Positions 8,154-47,096 of a stretch of 64,000 nucleotides of DNA are shown piece by piece (position 1 is the first letter of the stretch; the number at the start of each line of letters is the position of its first letter). The stretch covers positions 148,487-212,486 of the forward strand of contig JBAZMW010000002.1 of assembly GCA_041649575.1 (NCBI GenBank). Reading direction: 5' to 3'. This DNA comes from Patescibacteria group bacterium (GTDB lineage Bacteria; Patescibacteriota; Patescibacteriia; 2-01-FULL-39-33). The notes below the pieces were generated by a model. It made no database searches. It saw nothing but the letters and a program-made list of their open reading frames with translations, and was not told where the DNA came from. Made by a program: the position numbers and the translations under genes.

Positions 8154-8182
8154 TTGACATAATTTTGAAAGCATAATAAGAT
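8154..8182 (+). promoter_or_regulatory. Promoter TTGACA-17-TAAGATAAT driving a GC-rich cassette
   Basis: TTGACA at 8154-8159, 17-bp spacer, TAAGAT at 8177-8182. The same motif recurs at 9196. Confidence 0.55.
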
Positions 8183-8284
8183 AATATATCTTTCTCCAGA
8201 GAGAATGATTCATAGTCCACTTGTGGTGGAAGATGATTGCACAAAAGACAAGGGAACAGGAACCCAAGAAGGAGGCTGTACGTC

Positions 8285-9106
8285 ATGATTAAAAGAACCG
8301 TCGTGGGGCGACTTTTCCGTGATTCTGGCGCATTCGGCCAGTTGACGCCGCCGCCCGGTCTGGAGGGAACCATTGGTGATCCCGATTGGGATTTCTTCTC
8401 GAAGCTGCCGCCGCGTTTTGATTTTCTGGAACTCTGCGATCGGGTCGGCCACGCTTTTGAGATGTCCGAGTCACCCATCTCGCCCTCCGACTGGGAGGAC
8501 CAGTTCGAAAGTCAGAAGGAGCGGCTGCTCGCTCTGTCCGGCTGCTCTGATGGCCATGGCATCGTGCTTTTGCCCGGCCTATTGCCAGTGGCTCCCGGTG
8601 ATTGTATCAGGAAGAGCCTTTTCAATGTCTACATCCCGGCGGTAGAACGCGGCTACGGGGCGATCTATCCCAAGAGGGCTTTTGAGGATTGGTGTGATGG
8701 TCGGGCGGACAGTGTCGCGGCTTTTCCCGGAGTGGGCCACGAGCATCTAATCCACCTCGCCAGTAAAGGCTTGGTCGCCGTCTTCGTCTACATCGCCCAT
8801 TGTATGCGGGCGTGGCCCGTCTCGACCCAGCGCCGACTGCCACGGAAGTTGTTCAAATCGAATTTCTCCTTGGCCGGCGGCTGTGACACGCTTTCCGTCC
8901 TGTCTCTGCACCCTGATATTCTCGCCGCTGGTTTCTGTAGCCCGACGATCGAGCTCAGTGCCTTGCAGACAGATTCGCCGCGCCTCTCGATCTGCGTGGT
9001 GCCAGAAGACAAACGCCTCAGACTCGACATCTGGGGTAATCCCGACGATTTCGCGCCTGAAGCTTCAGGAGGGCTTTCGTTCTGGAAGGAGCAACCTGTC
9101 TTCTAG
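8285..9106 (+). CDS. Hypothetical protein, G+C-rich (foreign-looking) gene
   Basis: Long ORF in a sharply GC-rich segment. AAGGAGG sits 7 nt upstream of the ATG at 8285. No recognisable motifs. Confidence 0.5.
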   Translation: MIKRTVVGRLFRDSGAFGQLTPPPGLEGTIGDPDWDFFSKLPPRFDFLELCDRVGHAFEMSESPISPSDWEDQFESQKERLLALSGCSDGHGIVLLPGLLPVAPGDCIRKSLFNVYIPAVERGYGAIYPKRAFEDWCDGRADSVAAFPGVGHEHLIHLASKGLVAVFVYIAHCMRAWPVSTQRRLPRKLFKSNFSLAGGCDTLSVLSLHPDILAAGFCSPTIELSALQTDSPRLSICVVPEDKRLRLDIWGNPDDFAPEASGGLSFWKEQPVF

Positions 9107-9195
9107 CTGGCGCGCCTTAGCCGGCTGCCGGAGTTCTCTAATTGGGGCTAGTGATCATACCAATCACCGGCCTCTGTTTTTTGTTTTAAGCGTAG

Positions 9196-9224
9196 TTGAC
9201 ATTGATAATGAAAACCCTTAAGAT
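9196..9224 (+). promoter_or_regulatory. Promoter TTGACA-17-TAAGATAAT (second copy)
   Basis: TTGACA at 9196-9201, 17-bp spacer, TAAGAT at 9219-9224. Same architecture as the promoter at 8154. Confidence 0.55.
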
Positions 9225-9277
9225 AATCTTTCGATCTTTCAAGTTAAACTAGTAAGGCAACCATGGAGGGAGCTGCC

Positions 9278-10015
9278 ATGTTTCTGGTATTATTTTCCAT
9301 TCTGGTCTACCCAGTGGCCTTTGTCACCTTCGTCGTTTGCGCCTCAATCTACCTGGCGTTTGTCTTTGTCTTCAAGTCGCTGGGCTGGGAGCTGCAGTAC
9401 CTGGGGCCGTTGGTTCGGTTTCTGGCTCGCGTGATTCTCTTGAGTTGTGGCCAATGGCTCAAGGTTGGGGGCAACTGGCCCTCTCCGACTATCGGGCCTT
9501 GCATCTTTCTCTTCAACCACAGCTCTATCCTGGATGCTCTGGTGGCTGGCGCGGTGCTAAAAGGACGGTTCACTGGCGTGGCTGCCCAGGAGTATTTCTT
9601 TTGGCCGCTGTGGGGAACCATTATGCGCTGGCACAATATCATTCCCATCAAGCGCAAGTGCCACGACGAGGCCATAGAGAGCATGCGGCGGGCGGAAGAG
9701 GCGATAAAAAACGGCTGGTCAATAGGCGGCTTTCCCGAGGGCACCAGAAGCAAGACAGGAGAGTTGCAGCCGTTCAAAAAGGGCCTTTTCTATGTGGCCA
9801 AGGCCACGGGCGCGCCGATCGTGGTGATAGCCATCAAGGGGGCGTACCGTGCCAAGAGTCGCGTCGGTTGGTGTGTTCGGCCGGGAGTGATAACGGCCAC
9901 TATCGGCAAACCCTGGACCCTGTGGTCTAACGGAAAGCAACGGTATGCGGCCTTGTCGGTGGAAGAGTTAAGGCAACTGGCCGAAGGGCTCATGGCAACC
10001 ATGCTCGAAAGTTGA
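9278..10015 (+). CDS. 1-acyl-sn-glycerol-3-phosphate acyltransferase (PlsC/LPLAT family), G+C-rich
   Basis: NHSSILD (HxxxxD) and FPEGTRS acyltransferase motifs. N-terminal TM. GGAGGGAG RBS before the ATG at 9278. Confidence 0.75.
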   Translation: MFLVLFSILVYPVAFVTFVVCASIYLAFVFVFKSLGWELQYLGPLVRFLARVILLSCGQWLKVGGNWPSPTIGPCIFLFNHSSILDALVAGAVLKGRFTGVAAQEYFFWPLWGTIMRWHNIIPIKRKCHDEAIESMRRAEEAIKNGWSIGGFPEGTRSKTGELQPFKKGLFYVAKATGAPIVVIAIKGAYRAKSRVGWCVRPGVITATIGKPWTLWSNGKQRYAALSVEELRQLAEGLMATMLES

Positions 10016-10045
10016 GCGTCAGGCGGTTCCCGCTAGCGTAAGTAT

Positions 10046-10077
10046 CCGGCAACAGCGATGTTTGCCGGTTTTTCTTT
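10046..10077 (+). terminator. rho-independent terminator
   Basis: CCGGCAACagcgatgTTTGCCGG followed by TTTTTCTTT. Confidence 0.6.
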
Positions 10078-10123
10078 ACTTGATAAAATCTCCTAATTTG
10101 TTATAATTCAGTCAAACATTTTT

Positions 10124-12009: not shown

Positions 12010-12235
12010 TTTCATTTCTGCGAGCGCATGAAAATTTAGCAACAAAACAGGCGGAGTTCGAGCGTAAATTTTAATTTGTTTGAGCAAAAGCCACCAGTAA
12101 ACTGGTGGCTTTTGCGAGTTATTAAAATTAGCGAGAACAACCCTGTTTTGTCTAAATTTTCATTTAGCTCGCGCTTTTTTCTTTTGTGTCAGCTTTTCTT
12201 TTTACTAAAAAAAGAAAAGCTGACACAAAAAAAGA
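12010..12235 (-). repeat. Dispersed intergenic repeat, copy A (inverted orientation), with a 19-bp perfect hairpin at 12185-12228
   Basis: Shares cttttctttttttagtaaaaagaaaagctgac(a/g)caaaagaaaaaagcgcga and ...gctcaaac...aaattttcat(g/a)(c/g)gctcgca with the copies at 22162 and 24651. Confidence 0.6.
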
Positions 12236-12252: not shown

Positions 12253-12281
12253 TTGACAGAATTCTAATTATATGCTATTAT
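12253..12281 (+). promoter_or_regulatory. Promoter TTGACA-17-TATTAT for a GC-rich two-gene cassette
   Basis: TTGACA at 12253-12258, 17-bp spacer, TATTAT at 12276-12281. Confidence 0.55.
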
Positions 12282-12357
12282 AATAAGAAGTACCTTTTAC
12301 CACTGTGAGCTGGCCGACTTAGTCGGAAAACTAAGAACGAAGAAGGAGAAACACATC

Positions 12358-12714
12358 ATGAGTCAAAAGACTGGCATACTATTGCTGCTGTTGCGGCCGA
12401 AAGACGGAGCGGCCGTCTTCTTGGACTGGACCCAGAACGCCCTCTTCATGCTGGAGAGCGCGAGTGCCACAGGCGTTTCGCCGTTGGCCGAGAGGGAAGA
12501 TCTGGCCAAGTGTATGAAGGGTTACGAGCTGTGTCCCGCGCTTGGCTACGGCCTATGCGCCAGGTGCCCTATGTCAGTCACCGGCGGTGCTCTCTGTAAT
12601 TTCTGGGCTTCCCAGGGATTCGCCCGCGTGCTCGACGCGCGCACAGAAGAGGAGGCGACCTTTGCCGATCTCGATGCCATGCGCGCCGCGCTCACCGCTT
12701 CCATTACCGGCTGA
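12358..12714 (+). CDS. Hypothetical small protein (118 aa), G+C-rich
   Basis: GAAGGAGAA RBS. GC-rich ORF between a promoter and a shared terminator. No recognisable domain. Confidence 0.45.
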   Translation: MSQKTGILLLLLRPKDGAAVFLDWTQNALFMLESASATGVSPLAEREDLAKCMKGYELCPALGYGLCARCPMSVTGGALCNFWASQGFARVLDARTEEEATFADLDAMRAALTASITG

Positions 12715-12729
12715 AAGGAGAACACGGAC

Positions 12730-13107
12730 ATGCCAACGGTACAAGTGGCCGCGATAAATCTGCCGGCTGGCGCCTTCCTTTTCTTCTATCCGGAACACGC
12801 CACCCCCCAGTACCTTCTGTACAAGAATATCTGGCTGGGACAGACGATGTTCAGGCAGAAGCTAAACGAAGACGAACTTCAGGCTCTCCTCGCCGCCGGT
12901 CGAAATGGGTGGGAGGAAGTGGGCGAGGTGACTCGACGAGAGTTGCAGGCCGCGGATCTCTCTGGACTGGTTCGCAATCTCAAGACCAGGTGCGTCTGGC
13001 CCGAGAATGCGACCGCGTCAATCGCTGTCAGTCCTGACTGCAGCGGACGATGCTCGGAGTGTCGCGGGTGCTATAGCGACATGGAGCCAGTCACAGTAGA
13101 GCGATAG
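12730..13107 (+). CDS. Hypothetical small protein (125 aa) with Cys-rich C-terminus, G+C-rich
   Basis: AAAGGAG RBS. C-terminus DCSGRCSECRGCY. Confidence 0.45.
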   Translation: MPTVQVAAINLPAGAFLFFYPEHATPQYLLYKNIWLGQTMFRQKLNEDELQALLAAGRNGWEEVGEVTRRELQAADLSGLVRNLKTRCVWPENATASIAVSPDCSGRCSECRGCYSDMEPVTVER

Positions 13108-13126
13108 TCACACTGTGGTTCGTATC

Positions 13127-13170
13127 CGGGGGTTGTTGGTCGAGAAAGACCGGCAACCCTCTTTTTTTTT
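13127..13170 (+). terminator. rho-independent terminator of the GC-rich cassette
   Basis: GGGGGTTGTTGGTCgagaaaGACCGGCAACCCTC followed by T9. Confidence 0.65.
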
Positions 13171-14241: not shown

Positions 14242-14712
14242 ATGACCGAAGAAACAAATCCAATCGAAGAAGCTGCTAAGAGCGCTCCTGTGGCCGAAAA
14301 AGAAAGCGCGGCTGCTGGCAAAAAAGTTATCAAGCCCAGAGCCAAAAAAACCGTCGCTTATCGCCAGGTGAGCTCCGGCCGTGTTTATGTTAAGGCCAGC
14401 TACAACAATACCATGGTGACTTTTACCGATCAGAACGGCAATGTCTTGTCCTGGTCTTCGGCGGGCCAATGCGGCTTTAAGGGTCCCAAAAAAGCTACGC
14501 CCTATGCCGCCACCATTATCGTCAAAAATTGTTTTGAAAAGGTCAAAAATTACGGTTTGAAAGAAGTGGCAGTCTTTGTTAAAGGCATTGGCGGCGGCCG
14601 GGAAGCGGCCATTCGCGCCTTAAATGCCAACGGTTTGATTGTCACCGGCATTAAGGATGTCACTCCCATTCCTCACAACGGTTGCCGTCCCAAGAAACCG
14701 CGGCGCGTCTAA
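14242..14712 (+). CDS. rpsK: 30S ribosomal protein S11
   Basis: GRVYVKASYNNTMVTFTDQNGNVLSWSSAG...KGPKKATPYAA. Confidence 0.92.
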   Translation: MTEETNPIEEAAKSAPVAEKESAAAGKKVIKPRAKKTVAYRQVSSGRVYVKASYNNTMVTFTDQNGNVLSWSSAGQCGFKGPKKATPYAATIIVKNCFEKVKNYGLKEVAVFVKGIGGGREAAIRALNANGLIVTGIKDVTPIPHNGCRPKKPRRV

Positions 14713-15330: not shown

Positions 15331-15388
15331 AAAGTTATTTTAAAAATATTAAAATATAAATTAATTAGCTTAAGGAGGAATAAAAATT

Positions 15389-20532: not shown

Positions 20533-20710
20533 CGAGTGTTTTTAGATAATTTTTTTGAATAATATTAAAACTTTTGTTATTGTGGATAATTTTTGGTATT
20601 TTCATTTGACATACAATAAAAAAAATTTTATATTTTAAAATTATAATGATTATTATAATTTTATTTTGTTTAAATTTAGCTAAATTATTGGTATTTTAAA
20701 AAAATTACTA

Positions 20711-20739
20711 TTGACAAATATTTATCTATATGATATAAT
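20711..20739 (+). promoter_or_regulatory. Promoter TTGACA-17-TATAAT upstream of a long GC-rich leader
   Basis: TTGACA at 20711-20716, 17-bp spacer, TATAAT at 20734-20739. Confidence 0.55.
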
Positions 20740-20740
20740 T

Positions 20741-21314
20741 ATAATTGTAAAAAGATAAATAAGATATTTTTCGAATCTCCTTGCTCATGGCGTTACGCCA
20801 GTTATCTGGATGTATCGCCATTGACAAGGGTCTTTGAAAGGCGTTAGAACTATAATTTAGAGGAGGATGGCGCTTTATACGCTGCCAGTCCTGGCTTCAA
20901 GATAACTTCTTGAGGCGAGGCGGCCGGCTAAGCGCCCTGGGAAATCAGGTCACAAAATATAATTTTGCGGGCCGTACGATTCTCCCGCCAATCACCCTCT
21001 AATAATTGTTCTAAAAAATCAGGCGGGGATCTTGTCCCTGCCGCGATGCGAAGGAAGCCAGTGCCCGTAAATCTGCGCCTGTTTGGCGCAGATCAGGGCA
21101 GTCAGAAAAAGTTCGGCAAGTAGCAAAACAAACATCTTTACCGTGGCCGGCAACTTTTTCTCAAGTTTTATTCGTATCGTGGCAGAGGTAAGCGGCCACT
21201 GCCCTCTCCTTGGTGGCAAGCCGGTTTGGTTTGTATGACCGACCGGCTTGCCTCTCTACTTTAGTCAACAAGATTTGTTGACTGGGGCAGGGAAGTCAAC
21301 GAGGAGGGCGAGTC
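20741..21314 (+). ncRNA. Candidate structured RNA/long GC-rich 5' leader (unclassified) with a 12-codon mini-ORF at 20867-20905
   Basis: About 570 nt with markedly elevated G+C and multiple hairpins (e.g. GGCAAGCCGGT...ACCGGCTTGCC at 21218-21255). No B12/T-box/RNase P/tmRNA signature could be confirmed by eye. Confidence 0.3.
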
Positions 21315-21503
21315 ATGATTGTACAATGTTGTAAGTGCCTTCGCGTACGCGAAGGTACACAAGGTAGTGAGTGGAGCCAGGAGCCCGGAGAACGTTTGAC
21401 TGAAACAGACGTCTCCCATGGGTACTGCCCCGCTTGCACCGAGAAGGCGTTGGCAGAAGTACGCCAACACCATGGACAGAAGGAGGATACGCGGACCGAA
21501 TAG
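21315..21503 (+). CDS. Small zinc-ribbon protein (62 aa; CCKC...CPAC), G+C-rich
   Basis: GAGGAGGG RBS. Two CxxC pairs. Followed by a short hairpin and T-run. Confidence 0.5.
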   Translation: MIVQCCKCLRVREGTQGSEWSQEPGERLTETDVSHGYCPACTEKALAEVRQHHGQKEDTRTE

Positions 21504-21584
21504 GACCGCGTTTTAATTTTCTCAAAAATTATCAATAAATTTTTAAAGCACTCTTGACAACATCTTGTTTTTGATTTTTTTTCT

Positions 21585-21715
21585 GTGTTATAATTTTTTT
21601 GCAGGGAAGGATTATCACTCGTCATATTACCAGTTACACTTTAAACTCTCTCCCCTTAGTGTGGCCTGGCAATATCCAGAGTGCCTTCTCTAAATCCCGC
21701 CTTTACGGCGGGATT
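21585..21715 (+). ncRNA. Candidate small structured RNA (about 130 nt) ending in an intrinsic terminator
   Basis: GC-rich segment between AT-rich flanks. Terminator AAATCCCGCCtttacGGCGGGATTT plus a T-run at 21691-21730. Confidence 0.3.
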
Positions 21716-21776
21716 TATATTTTTTATTTTGTTAGTGTTTTATTTTGTGTTATAATAAGCCCATAAAAGGAGCGTT

Positions 21777-22157: not shown

Positions 22158-22161
22158 GCTG

Positions 22162-22430
22162 TTGTCACCTTTCTTTTTTTAGAAAATTATTTTTAATGCC
22201 GCTTCTTTTCTAAAAAGAAGCGGCAGAAGAAAATCGCAGCTATTGTAAAATCCAGACAAAATTAGGTGAGTTTTCGCTAAGGCCATTAACTCCCCGCTCA
22301 GGCGCTAGCGCGCTGAGCGGGTCAAACATAATGGCCTTTGGCCTGCGGCCACCGCTCAAACTCCCAGCCAATTTTGTTCCTGGATTTTCCAGCGCTGCCT
22401 TTTTTGATCTGCTTTTCATAGGCTCGCCGT
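22162..22430 (+). repeat. Dispersed intergenic repeat, copy C
   Basis: TTGTCACCTTTCTTTTTTTAG... start and ...TTTTCATAGGCTCGC end shared with copy B. Internal near-perfect palindrome CCCGCTCAGGCGCtaGCGCGCTGAGCGGG. Confidence 0.55.
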
Positions 22431-22454
22431 AATGATTTAAATAGGACAATAACG

Positions 22455-23569: not shown

Positions 23570-24649
23570 ATGAATTATATTAAACAACCAATTGGCTACA
23601 TTAAAGCAGAGGGTTCTGGTCCTGATATAGTGGGTTCGGCTATTCGTATTTTAAAAGAAGTCGAAAAAAAGATGGATGTAAGATTTAAACTAATAGAGTA
23701 TAAAGGCCAAGCGCCAGCACTGAAATATACCACTAAATCATTTACTGAACTAAAAAATTTTTATAAAAGAATTCGAGAAAGAAAGGGATGTATTATTCGT
23801 GGAGGAATTTACGCTAGACAGGTTTATAGATTGCGACACGATTTTAGGCTGACATATAAACCAATCTTAATCAACCCCATACCGGAATTGTTTGAAAATT
23901 CTCCTTTTAAGGCAGCCTTTGCCAAAAAAATAAACTTATTAATAGCCAGAGAAAACGCGCAAGGGCTATTGGTTTCCAAAGAGATATTAAAGAAAACAAA
24001 AACTAACGAGATATTTGAGGGAAAATTTTTTTACGACAAAAATCTTTGCCGAAAGTTTATAGAAATGTGCTATCAGGCCGCTAGTAAAAGGAAGAAAAAA
24101 ATCATGTTTTTAATTAAGGGTGATGTTTGGAGTCGTCAGAGTTTTGGTGGTATGTGGTTTAGTTTATGGAAGGAGGTTGGAAAAAAATATCCAGAAGTGG
24201 AATTTGATTGGGAACACGACGACACTTGGCTTGGCTATTTTATGAATCATCCAGAAAAATATGATATGGTAGTAGCTTTGGGCATTAGTGGCGATTTAAT
24301 TACCGATCCGATTGCCACTTTAGCTTATGGCACCAGAGCAATTACTCCTAGCGCTAACATTGCTCCAGACGGTTTTATGACTGTTCAAACCATTCATGGC
24401 GCCGGAACCGGTATACCAAAAGGTAAGGCCAATCCCATCGCCATGATTAGAGGCATTGGTCTATTGATGGAATATTTTTTTGAAATGCCAGAGATGAAAA
24501 ATCTTATCGATCTATCTATAAGAAAGGTACTGGCCAGAGGATATAGAACAATAGATATTTATCTTAGTAATAATCCCAAACACAAATTGATCGGCTGTAA
24601 AGAAATGACCAGCTTAATAGTAGAAGAGATGCAAAAACTAACCAGTTAA
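23570..24649 (+). CDS. Isocitrate/isopropylmalate dehydrogenase-family (Iso_dh-like) protein, divergent
   Basis: N-terminal IGYIKAEGSGPDIVG and GDLITDPIATLAYGTRAITPSANIAPDG resemble the Iso_dh fold. Assignment is tentative. Confidence 0.4.
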   Translation: MNYIKQPIGYIKAEGSGPDIVGSAIRILKEVEKKMDVRFKLIEYKGQAPALKYTTKSFTELKNFYKRIRERKGCIIRGGIYARQVYRLRHDFRLTYKPILINPIPELFENSPFKAAFAKKINLLIARENAQGLLVSKEILKKTKTNEIFEGKFFYDKNLCRKFIEMCYQAASKRKKKIMFLIKGDVWSRQSFGGMWFSLWKEVGKKYPEVEFDWEHDDTWLGYFMNHPEKYDMVVALGISGDLITDPIATLAYGTRAITPSANIAPDGFMTVQTIHGAGTGIPKGKANPIAMIRGIGLLMEYFFEMPEMKNLIDLSIRKVLARGYRTIDIYLSNNPKHKLIGCKEMTSLIVEEMQKLTS

Positions 24650-24650
24650 G

Positions 24651-24848: not shown

Positions 24849-24853
24849 AAAAA

Positions 24854-28309: not shown

Positions 28310-28336
28310 TGTTTTTAACATCTTTCTGTTATATTA

Positions 28337-28512
28337 AAGTGGTCGGTTGACGGGAATGACAGCCCCAAAAGGCCAAGAGTCCAGGGAAAGGTACTAGGAG
28401 CACTGACCGCTTTGAAAGCAACCGTCTAGCAAGTAAGCCAGAAGGCCTGGCTGGACGATTCTGTCGACCGATTCCGGGGAGCTCGCGGAGGCAAAAGCGG
28501 CTCCCCTTTATC
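28337..28512 (+). promoter_or_regulatory. GC-rich structured leader with intrinsic terminator upstream of lysS (candidate attenuator/riboswitch, unclassified)
   Basis: About 175 nt GC-rich segment ending in GGGGAGCTCGCGGAGGcaaaaGCGGCTCCCC plus a T-rich run, 60 nt before the lysS ATG. No T-box consensus seen. Confidence 0.35.
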
Positions 28513-28570
28513 GATCTTGATTATTTAATCCTTTTTTTGTAAAATTAAAACATTAAACCATTCCCAATTT

Positions 28571-30650: not shown

Positions 30651-30651
30651 T

Positions 30652-31110
30652 ATGAAAAAACTTTTTTTTCTCCTCTTGCCGGCTGCGGTTTTAGTTTTAG
30701 CCGGTTGCGGCTCCCAGCAACCCAACGCCAACACTATCGGCGGAGTTTTGGATTTAAGTAAATCGGCCCAGGAAATACAGAAAGACAGTGCCAGCCAGTC
30801 GGCTGTCACCTCCGAGGATAACGTGGACAACATCTATAAATTCTATAATTTGAACAATCAGGTCAAGGATGAAGCGGCTGCCAAAGACGCCATCAGCCAA
30901 GGCCTGGCAGACGGCAAAAATCAGACGGAATTAAATAAAACCCTGGCCAGAGACAAAGATTTTGGTTCGGCCTATCTTTTGGGCTACACCTTTGGCTGTA
31001 AAGCCACCGGCAAAGCCGAAACGGATTGCCAAAACGAGATGGGGCAGAAGCTCTCGGAAATCATGGTGGAGGATCTGCAAAATCAAATTCCCGGCGCCAC
31101 GCAGCAATAA
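30652..31110 (+). CDS. Lipoprotein (hypothetical)
   Basis: Lipobox LVLAGCGS after a hydrophobic signal. Start set at ATG 30652 to avoid overlap with the upstream gene. Confidence 0.55.
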   Translation: MKKLFFLLLPAAVLVLAGCGSQQPNANTIGGVLDLSKSAQEIQKDSASQSAVTSEDNVDNIYKFYNLNNQVKDEAAAKDAISQGLADGKNQTELNKTLARDKDFGSAYLLGYTFGCKATGKAETDCQNEMGQKLSEIMVEDLQNQIPGATQQ

Positions 31111-32389: not shown

Positions 32390-32433
32390 AAAATAAAACG
32401 AGCTGGCCGAATCGTGTTGATTCAGCCAGCTCG
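32390..32433. terminator. Bidirectional rho-independent terminator (serS and the convergent GC-rich gene)
   Basis: GAGCTGGCcgaatcgtgttgattcaGCCAGCTC with U-runs on both strands. Confidence 0.6.
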
Positions 32434-32452
32434 GTTGTAGCGTGGTGGCTTA

Positions 32453-32950
32453 CTATCTGAGGTGTAGAGCTTTCACCTCCGGTCCCTCACCGAAACACTT
32501 GCGTCCCGCCGGTGACCCCGCAAGAAGCCGCAGACTGCAGGTTCGCTTGGCTTTCTCGACTTCCTCCATCAGGATTTGCAGTACGTAGAGGAGTCGGTCG
32601 ACCGAGATCAACCTGGTCTTCAACTGCACACTTTCGGTCTCCACGTCGATACTGCCGACATGTTGCATCCGCCGCGTGACTTGCAGTTTGGGTCTGCGGC
32701 CCTCGACGGCTTTGACCGCCTCCCGTGTCAAGACGATGACGTCAGAGCAGTTGAACTCCGATTCCCTCAGTCGTCGGCCGAATTCCCGGATGTGTTTTCC
32801 GTCCGTGCCGGATTCGCCATCCGGGTCAGGCATTTCGAACAGGAACATACGCTCCAAGGCTCTCCGCAGGTCATCTCGTGGGTCGATCCCGACGCTCCTC
32901 TCTTCTTCCGACAACTCTTGTTCTCCCATTTCTGGCTTACCTTTCAGCAT
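32453..32950 (-). CDS. Hypothetical protein (165 aa), G+C-rich, acidic N-terminal half
   Basis: GAGGAG RBS before the ATG (minus). Own TTGACA-18-TATAAT promoter at 33020-33049 (minus). GC-rich relative to flanks. Confidence 0.5.
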   Translation of the reverse strand: MLKGKPEMGEQELSEEERSVGIDPRDDLRRALERMFLFEMPDPDGESGTDGKHIREFGRRLRESEFNCSDVIVLTREAVKAVEGRRPKLQVTRRMQHVGSIDVETESVQLKTRLISVDRLLYVLQILMEEVEKAKRTCSLRLLAGSPAGRKCFGEGPEVKALHLR

Positions 32951-33019
32951 ATGTTTCCTCGCTCCTCAATGTTTTCCACCATAGTCCTAGCAAGCCACCG
33001 TTGCTAAGGTACTAATTAT

Positions 33020-33049
33020 ATTATACCCCATAAACCCAAAACTTGTCAA
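33020..33049 (-). promoter_or_regulatory. Promoter TTGACA-18-TATAAT (minus strand) overlapping the 5' end of the divergent ftsQ-like gene
   Basis: Reverse complement reads CTTGACAagttttgggtttatggggTATAAT. Confidence 0.5.
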
Positions 33050-34002: not shown

Positions 34003-34968
34003 ATGAAGAAATCAAATCTGCCTATTCTCAGTCAGTTTTCGGACTTTCTGGCCTATTGCGAGGTAGAAAAAGGTCTTAGCCCCATTTCTACCAGAAATTA
34101 CCACAATTTTTTGAGAATGTTCGAAGGTTGGCTAAAAATCAAACATTTAACGCAGCTCAAGCCGCATGAGCTCACTCCAGAGCATGTCTGGGACTACCGG
34201 CTTTATCTTTCCCGTCGGCAAGACCGCTCTGGTCGCTATATCAAAAAAACCACTCAAAATTATTATTTAATCGCCCTTAGGAACCTTTTGAACTACTTCG
34301 CCGATAAAGATATTATCTCTTTGCCTTCAGAAAAAGTTAAATTACCAAAATTAACCGAAAAAGACAAAGCGATAAAGTTTCTAAAGTTTGATCAGATAGA
34401 AAAGTTATTACAGGTGCCGGATGTCACCACTCTTGAAGGCCTAAGGGACAGAACGATTCTCGAAATTCTCTTCTCTACTGGTATGCGGGTTTCGGAGTTA
34501 ACGTCGCTTAATATCAAACAGTTTGATCGCCTAGCTTTACTAAAAAATAATTTTTCTGATCAAGAGTTAAGCATCGCTGGTAAAGGTGGTAGAACAAGAA
34601 CGGTTTATTTTTCTCATCGAGCTTTGGGTTGGCTGGCTAGATACTTAAAAAACAGAAACGACCTCTATCCCCCGCTTTTTATTAACTATCGTCCCCATAA
34701 TGACAGAGATGACGAGCACCGTTTAACGCCTCGTTCGGTTGAAAGATTGGTAAAAAGACACACCGTGATGGCCGGGTTGCCTGTTGATGCCACGCCGCAC
34801 ACCCTGCGTCATAGCTATGCCACGGATTTATTGGATCAGGGAGCAGATTTGCGCAGTGTCCAGGAGCTTTTGGGGCATAAAAATATTGTTACCACTCAAA
34901 TTTATACTCACGTCACCAATCAAAAGCTTCGCTCCATTCATAAAAAATTTCATAGTGGCAATCATTGA
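34003..34968 (+). CDS. Tyrosine recombinase XerC/XerD family
   Basis: SAM-like N-domain. Catalytic R...HTLRHSYAT...LGH...Y (HTLRHSYATDLLDQGADLRSVQELLGHKNIVTTQIYTHV). Confidence 0.85.
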   Translation: MKKSNLPILSQFSDFLAYCEVEKGLSPISTRNYHNFLRMFEGWLKIKHLTQLKPHELTPEHVWDYRLYLSRRQDRSGRYIKKTTQNYYLIALRNLLNYFADKDIISLPSEKVKLPKLTEKDKAIKFLKFDQIEKLLQVPDVTTLEGLRDRTILEILFSTGMRVSELTSLNIKQFDRLALLKNNFSDQELSIAGKGGRTRTVYFSHRALGWLARYLKNRNDLYPPLFINYRPHNDRDDEHRLTPRSVERLVKRHTVMAGLPVDATPHTLRHSYATDLLDQGADLRSVQELLGHKNIVTTQIYTHVTNQKLRSIHKKFHSGNH

Positions 34969-35006: not shown

Positions 35007-35049
35007 CAGAGAATAAAATCGTCTTTTGTTTATTCTTTCTCTTTGCAAC

Positions 35050-35178
35050 CGCAGCCGCAACCGGCCCCGCAGGAACAGCAATGAAAACAAACCTCCGGCT
35101 CGCAGGAACAGCGGGTTTCTTCGTCTATGGGCATCTCGCATTTAGCGCATTTATCCATAAAATTTGGTTAATTATTTA
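35050..35178 (-). CDS. Cys-rich 42-aa peptide (12 Cys; ...CSCEPEVCFHCCSCGAGCGCGC...), metallothionein-like or RiPP-precursor-like
   Basis: Complete ATG...TAA frame, 20 nt downstream of the M23 peptidase gene on the same strand. Strongly GC-rich. Not in the ORF track because it is under 60 aa. Confidence 0.4.
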
Positions 35179-36500: not shown

Positions 36501-36529
36501 TTGACAAAAATCAATCTCAAAGCTATTAT
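36501..36529 (+). promoter_or_regulatory. Promoter TTGACA-17-TATTAT of a GC-rich cassette
   Basis: TTGACA at 36501-36506, 17-bp spacer, TATTAT at 36524-36529. Confidence 0.55.
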
Positions 36530-36584
36530 TTTTATTAAGTTGTCCTTTGGCTTTTGGTGAAGTTTCAACAACGGAGGGAGAAAC

Positions 36585-36848
36585 ATGGGACTCGTCGCTC
36601 CTGACACTCGCGGCAACGCGTGCTGGCTGATTAAATGCAACAACTGCGGCCATCAGGCGGCTTGGGATGGCTCCAATGCCGAGCAAACCCTTAGCCTGGC
36701 CGAGAATGATGGTTGGACGGTAACTCGAGGCAAGGGCCCAGGTGAGGTGGTCGCTCTGTGCCCCGAATGCAGGAAGAAACAACAGAAAGTCACTCCAGCC
36801 GCCATTGTCAGCCTGATGGATTTCCGCCAAGCATTGCCCAGGCGGTGA
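36585..36848 (+). CDS. Small zinc-ribbon protein (87 aa; CNNCGH...CPEC), G+C-rich
   Basis: GGAGGGAG RBS. Two CxxC pairs. Bidirectional terminator at 36889-36928. Confidence 0.5.
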   Translation: MGLVAPDTRGNACWLIKCNNCGHQAAWDGSNAEQTLSLAENDGWTVTRGKGPGEVVALCPECRKKQQKVTPAAIVSLMDFRQALPRR

Positions 36849-36888
36849 GCCGCGGGAGGTTTCCGAGATTCCCAACGTCAAAGGTTTC

Positions 36889-36928
36889 AAGGCTTGGACC
36901 GAGCGCGGTTCAAGCCTTTTCTGTCTTT
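36889..36928. terminator. Bidirectional terminator (GC-rich cassette and gltX)
   Basis: AAGGCTTGgaccgagcgcggttCAAGCCTT followed by TTCTGTCTTT. Confidence 0.55.
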
Positions 36929-38421: not shown

Positions 38422-39291
38422 TTATTTTTTCTTTACCACCAGCCACCCAAATTTAATGGTGGCATTATAAATCCTACTTAACCGGCGCGGTTCTTGGATT
38501 AGCCGATATAGCCATTCTAACCCCAATCGCCTCAAAAATAAAGGCGCGCGTCTCACCTGTCCCGACAAAAAATCAAAAGTCCCGCCGACGCCAATCGCCA
38601 CTTTAATTTTTGGCACTTTGGCTAAGTTGTCTCTGATCCACTTCTCCTGCCTCACTTGCGGCAAGGCCACCAACAGAATATTGGCTTCGCTGGCATTAAT
38701 TTTTTCCAGCACCTGATTGTTGTTTTCAAATTGCCAACATTTGTTTTCTATGGGATCCCCACGGCCGGCTTCGCCGGCCTCGGGATGACATTGTAGAAGC
38801 GGCCCGCCTTGGTCAAAGCCAGCCACTTTGCCAATATATTTTTCTGCCACTTGTTTTGCCGCTCCTTCTTTTCCGCCCAGTAAATAAATTTTATAAATGT
38901 CATTGCGAGGGAGCGCGAGCGACCGTCCGCCTAGGCTCGGCGAGACTGGTGGCAATCCCGTGGGATCACCGCGTTGCCCGGTCATTTGACCGGGCTCCTC
39001 GGGATGACAACTTAGAAGTGCCTCTATTAGATCCACGCCCGTCACTCTCTCTAATTTTTCTTGTTTTAAAAATTTAGCCGCCCAAACCAGCCCAGCGCCA
39101 TCGCAGGTGGCCAAATCAGCATTATTTAAAATATTTCTGAAAACTTCGTCTTTTTGCGCCGCCACCACAAATTCCGGATTAATCGTCACCACCTGCCTTT
39201 GGCCTTCCGCTGTCAGCCATTTTTTAATTAACTTCAAGGCTTCTGGCAAATTGACCTGATCGATTTTTATTCCCAGTATTTCTATTTTCAT
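38422..39291 (-). CDS. WecG/TagA/CpsF-family glycosyltransferase carrying three in-frame GC-rich repeat insertions
   Basis: VVTINPEFVV...ADLATCDGAGLVWAAKF...GVDLIEALL and C-terminal RVAGPDL-type region are typical TagA. Extra segments CHPEEPGQMTGQRGDPTGLPPVSPSLGGRS and CHPEAGEAGRGDP. Confidence 0.75.
   Translation of the reverse strand: MKIEILGIKIDQVNLPEALKLIKKWLTAEGQRQVVTINPEFVVAAQKDEVFRNILNNADLATCDGAGLVWAAKFLKQEKLERVTGVDLIEALLSCHPEEPGQMTGQRGDPTGLPPVSPSLGGRSLALPRNDIYKIYLLGGKEGAAKQVAEKYIGKVAGFDQGGPLLQCHPEAGEAGRGDPIENKCWQFENNNQVLEKINASEANILLVALPQVRQEKWIRDNLAKVPKIKVAIGVGGTFDFLSGQVRRAPLFLRRLGLEWLYRLIQEPRRLSRIYNATIKFGWLVVKKK
38751..38799 (-). repeat. In-frame GC-rich element 'X', copy 1
   Basis: tgggatcccc-[GGCCGGCttcGCCGGCC hairpin]-ctcgggatgacattgtagaag. 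Same flanks as copy 2 with a different, compensatory hairpin. Confidence 0.6.
38896..39018 (-). repeat. Composite in-frame element X2+Y (about 120 bp) bounded by imperfect inverted termini TGTCATCCCGAGG / CCTCGCAATGACA
   Basis: Y part (38896-38957) is homologous to the pheT insert. X part (38961-39018) is homologous to X1 and has the hairpin GCCCGGTCAaaTGACCGGGC. Confidence 0.6.
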
Positions 39292-39984: not shown

Positions 39985-40031
39985 ATACCAGCCTTTTTTG
40001 CAAAAGTAAATCAGTCTTGTTATAATAAAAG

Positions 40032-40245
40032 TGGTTCATTTCCTCGAGACCCGAACTGGTCATTTGGGTCTCACCGCTCCGGTGGGGAAGCGAAACCAGC
40101 GCCTTCGCTTCCCCTCTGGCTTAACCAAAGCACCTTGGTAGCACTTCCCGGGTCTACTGAAAGCCGCATCCAGGCAAGCATTAGACCCGTTCCCGCTGTG
40201 GCGGCCGATGGCATCAGTCATCAGCCGTCCTTTTTGTTTATCCAC
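40032..40245 (+). ncRNA. Candidate structured RNA R1 (about 210 nt, unclassified)
   Basis: TTGCAA-17-TATAAT promoter at about 40001-40024. GC-rich hairpins GAGACCC...GGGTCTC and GGGGAAGCGAA...TTCGCTTCCCC. T-run at 40230-40245. Confidence 0.3.
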
Positions 40246-40289
40246 AGTTAAATATTTATAACCAAAGAAATCTTTGCTATAATAAAATC

Positions 40290-40625
40290 ACATTGGACAT
40301 GGGGCTTGTCAAATGGCCCTGCAACCAGTCCGAACGGAGAACGAGCCATGAGAACAAAGACAACGAAGCGAGCAGCAGTGGGCGTGATGGTCGATGGCAC
40401 CGGCGGAACAGCGTACTTGGCGACGTCCTGACCTAACGAGAACGGTCGGACTGGGCGTCAAAGAAGTTCTCCGAGACGCTTGACTCAACCCAAGCGTCTC
40501 GCCGCACCTTAACTCTCCTCGGAGAGTTGTGACTATAGGTTTTCACGCTTTGACAAAGCGTGGACATCCCCCTAAGGTGAGCAGTCGGTTGCTGACAGGT
40601 AGCCGACTCTCTTTTTGTTTTTAAA
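40290..40625 (+). ncRNA. Candidate structured RNA R2 (about 330 nt) with SD and a 27-codon Thr-rich mini-ORF (40347-40430), ending in an intrinsic terminator
   Basis: Extended -10 TGCTATAAT at 40275-40283. Long-range pairing CAGTCCG...CGGACTG. Terminator GTCGGTTGCtgacaGGTAGCCGAC plus CTCTTTTTGTTTTT. Confidence 0.3.
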
Positions 40626-40767
40626 AAATTTAGTTATCCACAGGTACTATTTATTTCTTTAAAAAATAGTTATATAATGAAAGTGCGGAAGGTATTTACG
40701 ATAGCGTACAACCGAAGCAGGCCATCGGCCAAACGATCGGCCAAACGAAAGAAAGGTGGGACGGAAG

Positions 40768-41259
40768 ATGAGAAAGTTCGTGTTTTGTACGGTAGTACTG
40801 GCGTTCGCGTTTGTGATGATTCCGGCGACGAATACTCCGGCATACGCGACGCAACTCGATCAAGGCAAGGCAGTGGCGACGGCTCCGACGACGATGGGGA
40901 CGACGCAGCAGGACGTGCAGACGGCGATGAAGAGCAACCTGGTCCTCGACGGCACCGGGCAGAAAGTCGCTGAAGTGATGAAGGCGCCGACTCTTGACTC
41001 CGGACGAGTGATTGCGCAGACGGCGACGACGAAGACGGCACGCGAAGAGCAGACGAAGATCACGGCGAAGAGTGACACGGTTGTAACGGCGAAGATCGAA
41101 GCGCAAGGCATGGGCGAGCAGATGGCAGCGGCTGGCGAAGATGACGCTGGCACGATCATCGTGGCGACGAAGAGTGACACCTATGCGACGAGAATCGAGG
41201 GCCGTATCGCTCACGACGCGGACGCGACCTTCAATGCGAACGTTCTGATCATCGGCTAA
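40768..41259 (+). CDS. Secreted Thr/Ala/Lys/Gln-rich small protein (signal peptide, cleavage after AYA), G+C-rich
   Basis: AAAGGTGGGA RBS. MRKFVFCTVVLAFAFVMIPATNTPAYA signal peptide. Low-complexity mature part. Terminator at 41349-41390. Confidence 0.5.
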   Translation: MRKFVFCTVVLAFAFVMIPATNTPAYATQLDQGKAVATAPTTMGTTQQDVQTAMKSNLVLDGTGQKVAEVMKAPTLDSGRVIAQTATTKTAREEQTKITAKSDTVVTAKIEAQGMGEQMAAAGEDDAGTIIVATKSDTYATRIEGRIAHDADATFNANVLIIG

Positions 41260-41424
41260 CCACGCGGGCAGCGCCGAAAGTCAGAACGAGTAGTACCTTG
41301 GATACACAACCGATACCGGCCAACAGTCGGATCGGCCACCTCCAGAGTTGGGTCAGCTGGCAACGGCGACCCTCTCTTTTTTTGTTTTGAAAAAATTTGC
41401 CAAAATTTTATAAATTTTTTATAC

Positions 41425-41756
41425 TATAAGCAAGCGGTTCCTGCTGTGGGAACCGTGCACATTGGGTCAACGGGTCAACCGGAGGGTACAAGCAATATGA
41501 AAAAGGAAATGAGAGCGCAGGGTTTGGTCGTGGCGAAATGGAAGTAGGCTAGACCGTAGCAAGGCAACTTAGCGTTGTTGGGCGGAGGCCCCAACTAACA
41601 GTGGGCCTCCGCTGAATCTTTCCCTCGCTTGAGCGGGGTGCTGGTATATCCTTCTCTGAAGGGGTTCCCCCGTTGGGAAGTGTTGCCCATTCAACGCCTC
41701 CTGACCGCACAGGCTGCAATTTGTCGCAAGACGAAGGGCAGCCTGAATTATTTTTT
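41425..41756 (+). ncRNA. Candidate structured RNA R3 (about 330 nt) with SD and a 16-codon mini-ORF (41497-41547), ending in an intrinsic terminator just upstream of the radical SAM gene
   Basis: GC-rich. Hairpins GGCGGAGGCCC...GGGCCTCCGCT and CAGGCTGC...GCAGCCTG followed by AATTATTTTTTG. Confidence 0.3.
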
Positions 41757-44109: not shown

Positions 44110-44138
44110 AGATTGCTATCTAAATTAATCAAAAACAT

Positions 44139-44930: not shown

Positions 44931-44968
44931 AGATTAATTTTTTAAAACCGCCCTCGTTGGCGGTTTTT

Positions 44969-45283: not shown

Positions 45284-45368
45284 GTAATATTTTGCACCTC
45301 GTTTTTATTTAAAAAAATTGACAAAACTTAGTATAAATTAATATAATATAAAAAACTTAAATAAATTC

Positions 45369-45827
45369 ATGCTTCAAATACTAACCAATCCCAATCCAAT
45401 TTTGCGCCAAAAATCAGTCTTGGTCGCCGATTTTACTAATGAAGAAGTCCAGAAACTGGTGCCGGAAATGGCCGAGACTATGCTCAAAAAAGACGGGCTC
45501 GGTCTGGCCGCGCCACAAATTGGTAAAAATATCAGATTGATAGTAGTGAGCCATAAGGATGGTGTTTTGGCTCTGTTTAACCCAAAAATTATTAAAAAAT
45601 CTTGGTTTAAAGAATGGGGCGAAGAGGGTTGTTTGTCTCTGCCGGATAAATACGGCGAAGTCAAACGTCATAAGAATATAACTGTAAAATTCGATGATAC
45701 CACAGGCAAATCAGAATGTTTGGAAGCCAAGGGTTTATTGGCCAGAGTAATTCAGCATGAAATCGACCACTTGGACGGAGTTTTGTTTATTGATAAAGCT
45801 AGAAAAATCGTAAATATCGACAAATAA
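45369..45827 (+). CDS. def: Peptide deformylase
   Basis: GLGLAAPQIG, EGCLS and HEIDHLDG motifs. Confidence 0.92.
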   Translation: MLQILTNPNPILRQKSVLVADFTNEEVQKLVPEMAETMLKKDGLGLAAPQIGKNIRLIVVSHKDGVLALFNPKIIKKSWFKEWGEEGCLSLPDKYGEVKRHKNITVKFDDTTGKSECLEAKGLLARVIQHEIDHLDGVLFIDKARKIVNIDK

Positions 45828-45835
45828 AACACGAA

Positions 45836-45861
45836 GAACGGGCACCGGTTGGCACCCGTTC
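45836..45861. terminator. Bidirectional terminator between def and a convergent small gene
   Basis: GAACGGGcaccggttggcaCCCGTTC. Confidence 0.5.
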
Positions 45862-45892
45862 GGTTCCACAGAACAAACTCACGTCGCCTTGA

Positions 45893-46099
45893 TCACGCTG
45901 GCTCCAGCAGTCTGAAGCATATCATCATGCCGATGAAGCAACAGGCCGCCACAACCATTAAGCGCTCGATTCTCCTTTCCCAACCATGCCTCATGTTTTC
46001 ATAGACGAGTGGGATCGCAAAGCCGGAGAATAAGCCAATTAGGCCAAGAACCACCATGACCACTAGCAATGCACCGTGATATGCGGTAAACATGTCCAA
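45893..46099 (-). CDS. Small membrane protein (68 aa, two TM), G+C-rich
   Basis: AGGAGGG RBS before the ATG (minus). GC-rich relative to flanks. Confidence 0.45.
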   Translation of the reverse strand: MDMFTAYHGALLVVMVVLGLIGLFSGFAIPLVYENMRHGWERRIERLMVVAACCFIGMMICFRLLEPA

Positions 46100-46157
46100 G
46101 ACCCTCCTGTGTCTGTTGAAATTGTGCTTGTCAAAAACATACCATTAAAATTTACAA

Positions 46158-47096
46158 ATGTCAAAAACAAAAATCATCTTTGCCGGCACGCCGGAATTCG
46201 CCGTGCCGTTTTTAAAAGCTCTGACCGAAGACTCCGATTTTGAAATTATTGGCGTCATTACTCAACCTGATAAGCCTTCCGGCCGAAAACAAGAATTTGT
46301 CCCCTCACCTATCAAACAACTGGCTCTGAAACTTGGTTTAAAAATTTGGCAACCAGGCAGTGTTAAGAATAATCCCGAGTTAGAAAAAGAATTAAAACAA
46401 GTTAGTCCGGATTTATTAGTAGTAGTCGCCTTCGGTCAAATTATTCCGCAAGAAATTTTGGACTTAGCCAAATTTGGCAATATTAATGTCCACCCCTCTC
46501 TTTTACCCAAATACCGCGGGGCTTCTCCGGTTCAGAGTGCCATTTTGACCGGCGAAACAAAGACGGGTGTCACTATCATGCTGATGGACCAAAAAATGGA
46601 TCACGGGCCAATTTTGAGCCAAAAAACCCTACTCCTTAATAGCGAAGAAACCAATCAATCCCTACACCAGGCCTTGGCAGAGCTGGGGGTGCCGCTTTTA
46701 CTGACCACCATCAAAGGCTTTTTGGGGGGTAAAATTAAGCCCCAGGAACAAAATCACGAGTCAGCCACTTTTTGCCAGACCATAACCAAAGACAGTGCCA
46801 AAATTGATTGGTCCAACGCGGCAATTGAGATCAAAAGAAAAATTTATGCTTTTTATCCCTGGCCAGGCGTTTGGGCTATTTGGGGTGGCAAGAGGATCAA
46901 GTTTTTTCCGCCAGCAGAAATCGTCAATGATTCAAAAAAACCGGGTGAAATTTTTTTGTCTGGAGACGGCTTAGCTGTTGGTTGTGGCCAAGGGTCGTTG
47001 AAAATTTCCAAGTTGCAACTGGAAGGCAAAAAAGAAATGACCGCCCAAGAGTTTTTGCGCGGCTATAACAAAGTTGTTGGTGAAATTCTAAAATAA
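46158..47096 (+). CDS. fmt: Methionyl-tRNA formyltransferase
   Basis: IIFAGTPEFAVP...NVHPSLLPKYRGASPVQSAIL motifs. Confidence 0.92.
   Translation: MSKTKIIFAGTPEFAVPFLKALTEDSDFEIIGVITQPDKPSGRKQEFVPSPIKQLALKLGLKIWQPGSVKNNPELEKELKQVSPDLLVVVAFGQIIPQEILDLAKFGNINVHPSLLPKYRGASPVQSAILTGETKTGVTIMLMDQKMDHGPILSQKTLLLNSEETNQSLHQALAELGVPLLLTTIKGFLGGKIKPQEQNHESATFCQTITKDSAKIDWSNAAIEIKRKIYAFYPWPGVWAIWGGKRIKFFPPAEIVNDSKKPGEIFLSGDGLAVGCGQGSLKISKLQLEGKKEMTAQEFLRGYNKVVGEILK

Follow-up and report, generated by a model that had tools for sequence, protein, structure and literature searches.

GC-rich mini transcription units as lineage-specific indels between conserved genes of a patescibacterial contig

GC-rich segments and their transcription units

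We analyzed a 64,000-nucleotide (nt) stretch of DNA (the window; positions 148,487 to 212,486 of the forward strand of contig JBAZMW010000002.1) from a genome annotated at NCBI as a Patescibacteria group metagenome-assembled genome (MAG). The window is part of the 235-kb metagenome contig k141_2894300 (ENA ERZ27247363), which was assembled with MEGAHIT. Between its core genes lie about 13 independent lineage-specific transcription units; eight of them contain nine open reading frames (ORFs), and five or six are structured and RNA-like. The units are indels, compositionally distinct, mutually unrelated and, unlike the core genes, equipped with Shine-Dalgarno (SD) sequences.

The original prediction, made from the letters of the window, held that ten segments are richer in GC than their neighbors and represent one recurring cassette type. 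The first part of this proposal held overall when windowed GC was computed. The GC content of the window is 43.7%, that of the ten segments pooled (7.3 kb) is 52.7% and that of the remainder is 42.6%; 800-nt windows outside the segments have a mean GC of 0.429 (sd 0.038, maximum 0.524). Two segments did not conform: 21555-21730 has 36% GC as flagged and 44% across its transcribed part, and 35050-35178 (46-49% GC) belongs to a conserved core gene described below. Segment 40001-41756 comprises four separate units (c9a-c9d). The units, with predicted features, are listed by position in the window and strand; sizes of products are in amino acids (aa), and GC3 is the GC content at third codon positions.

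c1a, 8154..9183, plus: promoter TTGACA-17-TAAGAT at 8154-8182; 5' untranslated region (UTR) of ~100 nt; SD AGGAGG; 273-aa ORF at 8285-9106 (58% GC, GC3 0.67); terminator-like hairpin and T run at 9147-9183
c1b, 9196..10074, plus: promoter TTGACA-17-TAAGAT at 9196-9224; 250-aa ORF for a PlsC-like acyltransferase at 9263-10015 (57% GC, GC3 0.70; motifs NHSSILD and FPEGTR); terminator at 10046-10074
c2, 12253..13170, plus: two-gene operon; promoter at 12253-12281; ORFs of 118 aa (12358-12714) and 125 aa (12730-13107), each with an AGGAG SD, Cys-rich, 58-61% GC; terminator at 13128-13161, then a T run
c3, 20711..21520, plus: consensus promoter at 20711-20739; structured non-coding leader of ~570 nt at 20745-21314; SD AGGAGG; 62-aa CxxC...CPxC ORF at 21315-21503; terminator at 21491-21520
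c4, 21554..21725, plus: RNA-like, ~125 nt, 44% GC; extended -10 box TGTGTTATAAT at 21584-21594; terminator at 21691-21717
c5, 28327..28513, plus: RNA-like, ~170 nt, 57% GC; extended -10 box TGTTATATT at 28327-28335; terminator-like hairpin at 28476-28513
c6, 32399..33049, minus: consensus promoter at 33049-33020; SD AGGAG; 165-aa ORF at 32950-32453 (57% GC, GC3 0.68); terminator at 32433-32399
c8, 36501..36925, plus: promoter TTGACA-17-TATTAT at 36501-36529; SD GGAGG; 87-aa CxxC...CxxC ORF at 36585-36848; terminator at 36889-36918
c9a, 39998..40245, plus: RNA-like, ~210 nt, 57% GC; promoter at 39998-40026; terminator at 40200-40239
c9b, 40238..40620, plus: RNA-like, 330 nt, 55% GC; TTATCCACA box at 40238-40246; -10 box ending at 40283; possible SD-led 27-aa ORF at 40349-40431; terminator at 40583-40608
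c9c, 40634..41384, plus: TTATCCACA box at 40634-40642; -10 box TATATAAT at 40671-40678; 163-aa Thr/Ala-rich ORF at 40768-41259 (59% GC, GC3 0.74); terminator at 41350-41384
c9d, 41397..41756, plus: RNA-like, 325 nt, 55% GC; promoter at 41397-41425; possible SD-led 16-aa ORF; terminator-like hairpin at 41710-41756
c10, 45836..46164, minus: promoter at 46164-46136, overlapping the fmt start codon; SD AGGAGG; 66-aa ORF with two hydrophobic stretches at 46093-45895 (50% GC); terminator at 45861-45836

We measured unit GC between the presumed start of transcription and the terminator. By this measure 10 of 14 units, coding and non-coding alike, fall within a band of 55-58% GC, with c3 at 50% and c10 at 52%. 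The codon-usage check gave the same picture: the ORFs of the units (cassette ORFs) are mostly 57-61% GC with a GC3 of 0.62-0.74 (exception, the 62-aa ORF at 0.54), against 40-49% GC and a GC3 of ~0.45-0.55 for most core genes. Dinucleotide-signature distances from the protein-coding units to the backbone are mostly 160-320; among backbone genes they are mostly 60-130. The GC-rich 5' UTRs in the original prediction were not found on measurement, since the UTRs have ~44-51% GC, which is the genome average, and the jump in GC begins at the start codon or the RNA body. A lineage-wide shift to high GC was ruled out, as spacers remain at 15-30% GC.

Shine-Dalgarno sequences separate the units from the core genes

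The split between genes with and without an SD is the most useful new element of this analysis. A strong SD (AGGAGG, GGAGG or AGGAG, at the canonical distance) precedes seven of nine cassette ORFs, in agreement with the GGAGG-type sites originally described, but only 2 of 54 core genes (Fisher p = 2e-6); at 44% GC, an SD motif is expected by chance in ~1% of genes. The leaders of the 54 core genes are A/T-rich and essentially SD-free, with rpoA and one membrane protein as the exceptions. The same split recurs in four loci from related genomes (L082, L162, L004 and L163).

We searched the window and all fetched loci for the 3' end of 16S rRNA, which carries the anti-SD, and none of them contains it. 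According to a published survey, roughly half of the Parcubacteria lack an anti-SD motif (PMC9297842). SD pairing probably still works in the present organism, because the SD has been kept in front of rpoA (window and L004) and in front of the 273-aa family, whose members are only 25-41% identical; this argues for pairing and does not prove it. The SD-poor systems already described, namely Bacteroidota and the Parcubacteria subgroup without anti-SD (PMC9297842), resemble the window in its nearly SD-free core with A/T-rich leaders. The window differs from them in that a distinct minority, consisting of the accessory units and rpoA, has strong SDs.

The SD of rpoA is AAGGAGG (window 15364-15388; L004 ~14285-14308), and more distant Parcubacteria have no SD at this gene. 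It may be a regulated or coupled initiation site.

The junctions of the units in related genomes

The closest genomes that we found (L002, L003, L004, L082, L083 and L162) are 60-71% identical to the window in their alanyl-tRNA synthetase (AlaRS) or GltX protein, and their gene order is well conserved with that of the window. The synteny comparison suggested in the original prediction was borne out: the neighbors of the units are conserved, and the junctions that hold units are longer in the window than in the relatives.

MnmA-AlaRS junction (c1a and c1b): 2079 bp in the window; ~370 bp in L002; a 39%-identical PlsC-like gene at this place in L003
AlaRS-IF1 junction (c2): 1438 bp in the window; ~200-700 bp in L004 and L012
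c5 junction: 303 bp in the window; 69 bp in L082; 112 bp in L162
c8 junction: 458 bp in the window; 240, 106 and ~0 bp in relatives
c9 junction, whole: ~1800 bp in the window; 161 bp in L162
def-fmt junction (c10): 330 bp in the window; 11 bp in L082; 30 bp in L162

The units are lineage-specific indels between conserved syntenic neighbors; unit c1b, for instance, is absent from L002. Where a relative has no unit, only a short AT-rich spacer separates the neighbors. The relatives have distinct small units of their own, some at junctions occupied in the window and some elsewhere. At the c6 junction, L082 contains a 91-aa Cys-rich ORF, L162 a 103-aa ORF and the window the 165-aa ORF, with no detectable similarity among them; in both L082 and L162 the ORF is preceded by a promoter of the TTGACA...TATAAT type and an SD and is followed by a terminator. 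In L004, AlaRS is flanked by two SD-led ORFs (173 and 103 aa), and L002 contains a 55-aa zinc-ribbon ORF, a 109-aa ORF, a 58-aa membrane peptide and RNA-like stretches.

These comparisons bear on the possibility that the units are assembly artefacts, i.e. chimeric joins or contaminating high-GC reads in the MEGAHIT contig. The metagenomic source and the abrupt changes in composition would fit such an origin. However, the borders of the units match promoters, start codons and terminators, and chimerism could hardly account for a dozen short inserts that each lie between syntenic genes. The proteins also recur in records of NCBI, ENA, JGI and Logan, one of them a separate Logan contig of 1.5 kb, and relatives from other samples have the same kind of units. 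We regard an artefact as highly improbable.

One product named in the original prediction, a 42-aa peptide with 12 Cys (35030..35158, minus), is a conserved core gene and not a cassette. The gene is kept at the same position in L082 and L162 with 65-70% identity over 23 aa, has no SD, and its composition is not distinct from the core. With its CxC and CGCGC motifs the peptide resembles metallothionein, and in L082 and L162 its gene adjoins an M23 peptidase gene.

Promoters and terminators of the units

Near-consensus promoters of the sigma-70 type, as had been proposed, are present at the units, and the predicted terminators are of the intrinsic type. Matches of 10-12 out of 12 positions to TTGACA-17/18-TATAAT are located at 8154, 9196, 12253, 20711, 33049 (minus), 36501, 39998, 40255, 41397 and 46164 (minus), and the best matches in the region fall at unit starts. 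Equally strong sites nevertheless lie ahead of core genes, at 10080 (AlaRS), 13239 (IF1/ribosomal-protein operon), 22455 (pheS) and 45318 (def). Since core operons use the same promoter and terminator pattern, this layout is the ordinary transcription-unit design of the organism and not a signature of the cassettes. A scan for hairpins followed by T runs located terminators at 13128-13161, 21691-21717, 32433-32399 (minus), 36889-36918, 40583-40608 and 45861-45836 (minus), and the remaining terminators of the units were read directly from the sequence. Although the proposed terminators were located at the units in this way, the overall number of terminator-like structures is not clearly above that in shuffled sequences (31 versus 27.6 and 37 versus 25.9).

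The perfect DnaA-box consensus TTATCCACA is found three times in the window (20581-20589, minus; 40238-40246, plus; 40634-40642, plus), against 0.38 expected. Those at 40238 and 40634 each precede the -10 box of a mini-unit by ~30 nt, and the third is in the AT-rich spacer upstream of c3. At the syntenic site of L082 (8205-8213, minus), the c9b box, the spacing and the TATAATAAAATCAC -10/initial sequence are retained and the transcribed body differs. The TTATCCACA sites may be binding sites of a regulator instead of a replication origin. The shared c9b promoter with its differing payload suggests a resident site at which the payload changes quickly or is replaced.

The -10 hexamer TA(A/G)GAT, present in the TTGACA-17-TAAGAT promoters at 8154-8182 and 9196-9224, was also seen in L002 (~6150-6180) and at cassette genes of L164, L167 and L170. 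Its occurrence at several SD-led units, versus TATAAT at core operons, could reflect a distinct promoter subclass or sigma preference.

The units do not form one mobile cassette family

We compared the units with one another by repeat search, all-against-all blastn and multiple alignment, and found no similarity beyond the promoter consensus. Alignment of the RNA-like units with one another and with the units of L082 revealed no homology, and blastn of all units against ~160 related loci returned a 72-nt PlsC stretch as the sole match. Terminal repeats, shared ends, flanking repeats, attC-like sites and target-site duplications were not found at the units. Neither an integrase nor a transposase was noticed among the genes of the window, although not every window protein was scanned against Pfam. 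In L162, genes with Phage_integrase and Phage_int_SAM domains are located in a 3.4-kb insertion that lies beside the 42-aa peptide gene and is bordered by the M23-peptidase gene and by the homologue of the window gene at 34003-34968.

With no shared sequence, ends or repeats, the proposal of one recurring cassette type could not be sustained. The units differ from integron cassettes in that no imperfect inverted repeats are common to their ends and they have their own promoters, and, having no similar copies, they are unlike miniature inverted-repeat transposable elements (MITEs) or insertion-sequence modules. They do not constitute a classical genomic island either, being scattered units of one or two genes, with the only tRNA gene far away at 62619. 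A single mobile family (integron-like cassettes, MITEs or a transposon-borne module) spread through the genome would account for the similar promoter/SD/terminator layout, and a separate MITE-like repeat of ~210 nt does abut c2. Against it stand the dissimilarity of the units beyond the promoter consensus, the missing terminal repeats, attC-like sites and target duplications, the integrase or transposase not seen among the window proteins scanned (integrase-like genes do occur in L162), and the absence of any PHROGs or PADLOC match. We consider such a family very doubtful.

Non-coding RNA-like units

GC-rich intergenic stretches in AT-rich genomes serve as markers of structured non-coding RNAs. 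Our five or six RNA-like units are like those RNAs in being GC-enriched and stably folded with their own terminators, and unlike them in having no Rfam family or homologues and in not being conserved in the closest relatives. Codon periodicity is missing from units c4, c5, c9a, c9b and c9d as well as from the 570-nt c3 leader. Compared with shuffled sequences, they fold with z scores of -6.1 (c4), -2.6 (c5), -5.4 (c9a), -3.6 (c9b), -3.6 (c9d) and -9.8 (c3 leader), and none of 100 shuffles folded as well as the c3 leader. Control coding sequences (CDSs) gave z scores of -1.7 to +1.4.

The search of the RNA-like segments with Rfam covariance models, which had been proposed as a check, returned no family. 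At the gathering threshold of Rfam 15, only tRNA-Gln passes in the window, and the E-value mode yielded sub-threshold matches only for the RNA-like units. No homologues of these units were found, and covariation support is hence absent. That they might be decayed protein cassettes was unsupported, as codon periodicity was not seen. The earlier idea of a family of regulatory RNAs or small proteins was upheld insofar as several units are non-coding and structured (z scores of -2.6 to -9.8), but not as to a shared family or an Rfam family.

We also considered whether all the GC-rich stretches might be structured RNAs whose ORFs are chance open frames. Several units are truly non-coding, open frames occur on several frames and strands of these stretches, and the probability of the short ORFs staying open is only 0.03-0.06. 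The tested cassette CDSs, however, are strongly periodic, with values at the three codon positions of 0.61/0.47/0.67, 0.64/0.40/0.68 and 0.57/0.47/0.74, and the RNA-like units are not. In addition, the SD is correctly spaced ahead of ATG, two tested CDS pieces fold like shuffles (z = 0.1 and -1.7), and the 273-aa and PlsC proteins are backed by homologues and by a confident fold. This explanation is unlikely.

Proteins encoded by the units

The products named in the original prediction were largely recognized again, i.e. a PlsC-like protein, CxxC...CxxC proteins, a Thr/Ala-rich protein, a peptide with two hydrophobic stretches and the 42-aa peptide already described. The 250-aa ORF matches PF01553 (2e-28; 99 bits, cut-off 23) and has the HX4D and EGTR motifs. 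It scores below the TIGR00530 cut-off, so that no particular substrate is assigned. Relatives of it are few and reach 49% identity at best; the homologue in L170 retains the SD and a similar terminator. The zinc-ribbon-like small proteins of 62, 87 and 125 aa are Cys-rich, and the 118-aa protein contains Cys. As read from the sequence, the 163-aa Thr/Ala-rich protein of c9c begins with a hydrophobic, signal-peptide-like stretch (MRKFVFCTVVLAFAFVMIPATNTPAYA), and the 66-aa peptide of c10 has two hydrophobic stretches. The 165-aa protein retrieved only itself among the indexed 5.8 billion proteins.

Scans of the cassette proteins with PADLOC, PHROGs and NCBIfam gave nothing except PlsC. No match was obtained by tblastn against phages (8 of 9 cassette proteins, as a chimeric query) or in viral scans of IMG/VR with four cassette proteins, and a PDB sequence search with the two zinc-ribbon ORFs was likewise negative.

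For the 273-aa protein Pfam gave no match, but 136 related clusters were retrieved when 1.84 billion representatives were scanned in full with HMMER. An AlphaFold model based on a 50-sequence alignment (pLDDT, the predicted local confidence score, 90.3; pTM, the predicted overall-fold score, 0.90) predicts a lectin-like fold. Foldseek of this model against PDB gave nothing significant, and the family profile, searched against PDB sequences, had a single match at E = 0.23. The lectin-like fold prompted a comparison with variable proteins of diversity-generating retroelements, which combine a C-type-lectin-fold C-terminus carrying a variable repeat with a template repeat and a nearby reverse transcriptase; the 273-aa protein does not qualify as one of them.

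The family of the 273-aa protein was read in seven contexts, all of them in low-GC genomes like those of the candidate phyla radiation (CPR). In each of the seven, the gene is single, SD-led and 6-17 GC points above its neighbors, and it has its own promoter, long 5' UTR, SD and terminator wherever enough upstream sequence was read. In the longer contigs the junction is new each time (dnaN|X|PBP, with a penicillin-binding protein gene; X|secG; nusA|X|tsaD; ychF|X). The best relative of the window protein, in another CPR-like genome, is 41% identical to it, and members are 25-41% identical to one another. The constant GC offset fits either an intrinsic or selected GC content or a shared mobile pool with rapid turnover.

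Origin of the units

We put at about even the chance that the units are heterogeneous accessory units that were horizontally gained one at a time and are quickly lost, and that they are not copies of one element. The same junctions house unrelated small SD-led ORFs, each with a promoter and terminator of its own, in L082, L162, L004 and L002, which is a hot-spot pattern. Entry would probably be by DNA uptake and recombination at intergenic junctions; integrase, repeats and phage genes were not seen with the units. Proteins of the units would be translated by pairing of SD and anti-SD, and core genes would initiate on their A/T-rich, SD-free leaders. The products (zinc-ribbon-like, membrane, secreted and lectin-fold proteins, an acyltransferase and small RNAs) may serve accessory roles, perhaps in the envelope or in interaction with a host.

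The high-GC host of an episymbiont, which the original prediction had offered as a source, did not find support. Close homologues would be expected from recent donors in the community, yet none were found: the 165-aa protein has no relatives, those of the 273-aa protein are at most 41% identical, and the seven contexts of its family are all low-GC and CPR-like.

Several observations weigh against horizontal gain. No donor was identified, as the 41% best relative of the 273-aa protein and the lack of any relative of the 165-aa protein illustrate, and neither integration machinery nor target-site duplications were found. The elevated GC does not extend beyond the CDS or RNA body and the terminator, with promoters and 5' UTRs native in composition. 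In seven of seven contexts the GC of the 273-aa family exceeds that of the host despite mutual identities of 25-41%, which is hard to reconcile with simple recent import. The promoter TTATCCACAG, followed after ~30 nt by TATAATAAAATCAC, is shared by the window and L082 in spite of the different payload. An SD may simply be needed by GC-rich structured mRNAs, and it is thus not independent evidence of foreign origin. Finally, the nearest relatives are only 60-70% identical at the protein level, so that gain can be neither separated from loss nor dated.

A number of these points would be explained if the units were resident, i.e. vertically inherited, fast-evolving SD-dependent small genes and small RNAs at fixed sites, with sequences that have diverged past recognition and with GC and SD as intrinsic properties. 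Selection would then act on the structure or stability of the mRNA or RNA, or favor a separate way of initiating translation. Such a class would fit the restriction of high GC to the transcribed body, the common 55-58% band of coding and non-coding units, the promoter architecture kept at the syntenic c9b site of L082 and the several relatives with units at the same junctions. It would also fit the PlsC-like gene of L003 at the same junction (39% identity), the SD and terminator retained by the L170 homologue, and the 273-aa family, which is 6-17 GC points richer and SD-led in all seven hosts at identities of 41% or less. On the other hand, several junctions are nearly empty in relatives (11-30 bp, or even overlapping genes), the occupants of a single junction differ without detectable similarity (165, 91 and 103 aa), and the junction of the 273-aa family differs in every longer contig read. 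The dinucleotide signature is unlike that of the core, and GC3 is far from the core value; long residence should have erased this difference unless synonymous sites are selected. We therefore regard residence as possible but less probable than horizontal gain of accessory units.

Tentatively, the window may represent a CPR clade with two gene classes, an SD-free core and a fast-turnover class of SD-led GC-rich mini-genes and small RNAs at junction hot spots. CPR/Patescibacteria have small genomes with many genes of no known function, and the units bear on how these bacteria gain genes and start translation. If the present reading is confirmed, new genes would enter this clade largely via single self-sufficient units at intergenic junctions, and the ribosome-binding signal would distinguish accessory from core genes, which would be a practical criterion for MAGs. 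The units would also supply candidates for host-interaction factors and new small RNAs, and they would allow initiation with and without an SD to be compared within a single cell.

Comparison with phage morons and transferred genes

Phage morons (Hendrix/Juhala) are defined by three properties: they have a promoter and a terminator of their own, the genes on either side of them are neighbors in related genomes, and their composition deviates (PMC3594210). Like them, our units are independent, with heterogeneous cargo and no common sequence. As judged from consensus scans and reading of the sequence, they have their own promoters and terminators; they lie between genes that are adjacent in L082, L162, L083, L002 and L004, and their composition deviates (55-58% versus 42.6% GC, and the dinucleotide signature). 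They do not reside in a phage or prophage, as the neighbors are housekeeping genes and there were no PHROGs or viral-contig matches. Unlike morons, the units are found in a cellular chromosome amid aminoacyl-tRNA synthetase, ribosomal-protein and def/fmt genes, and several of them encode RNAs instead of proteins. The units would thus work like morons, but we do not file them as such, because they are located in a cellular chromosome without phage genes. It is conceivable, though we would not favor it, that the fast-turnover class is a cellular counterpart of morons, recruited from mobile genes that circulate throughout the CPR and that have a composition, and perhaps a mode of translation, of their own.

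In Patescibacteria, many single genes have been transferred horizontally, mostly between Patescibacteria (PMC12455944). Those individually transferred genes and small genomic islands are similar to our units in phylum, in the gain of single genes and in the many hypothetical proteins. The transfers of that study were detected by similarity between community members and by island predictors; our units, which were detected by synteny gaps, composition and SD, differ from them in having no close relatives.

Other features of the window

The spacer upstream of pheS (22158-22454) contains a GC-rich imperfect hairpin region at ~22265-22345, which is not a T-box and belongs to no Rfam family.

A MITE-like repeat of ~210 nt is present in two copies (12018-12233, plus; 24650-24850, minus) that are 76% identical, with near-identical ends. 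An AT-rich hairpin, perfect over 25 bp, terminates the repeat. The first copy abuts the c2 promoter, and the other is between the low-GC genes that split pheS and pheT.

A GC-rich palindromic element of ~70 nt is located within two housekeeping genes that are unrelated to each other, pheT (25960-26045, plus) and a WecG-like gene (38896-38967, minus). Its 63-nt core is 95% identical between the copies and is in frame in both genes, adding ...P(K/T)GLPPVSPSLGGRS... to the proteins; the WecG-like protein is ~35 aa longer than its L082 orthologue. We found no further copies in the window or the related loci. Its position within coding sequence recalls the Rickettsia palindromic elements.

Genes of low GC have also been inserted. 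At 23570-25345, an idh-like (isocitrate/isopropylmalate-dehydrogenase-like) gene with 36% GC and a 163-aa ORF with 29% GC separate pheS from pheT, and two genes at 30084-31110 (the first with 33% GC) have no counterpart in L082, L162 or L083. All of these inserted genes lack an SD. The insertions in the window thus include both high-GC and low-GC genes.

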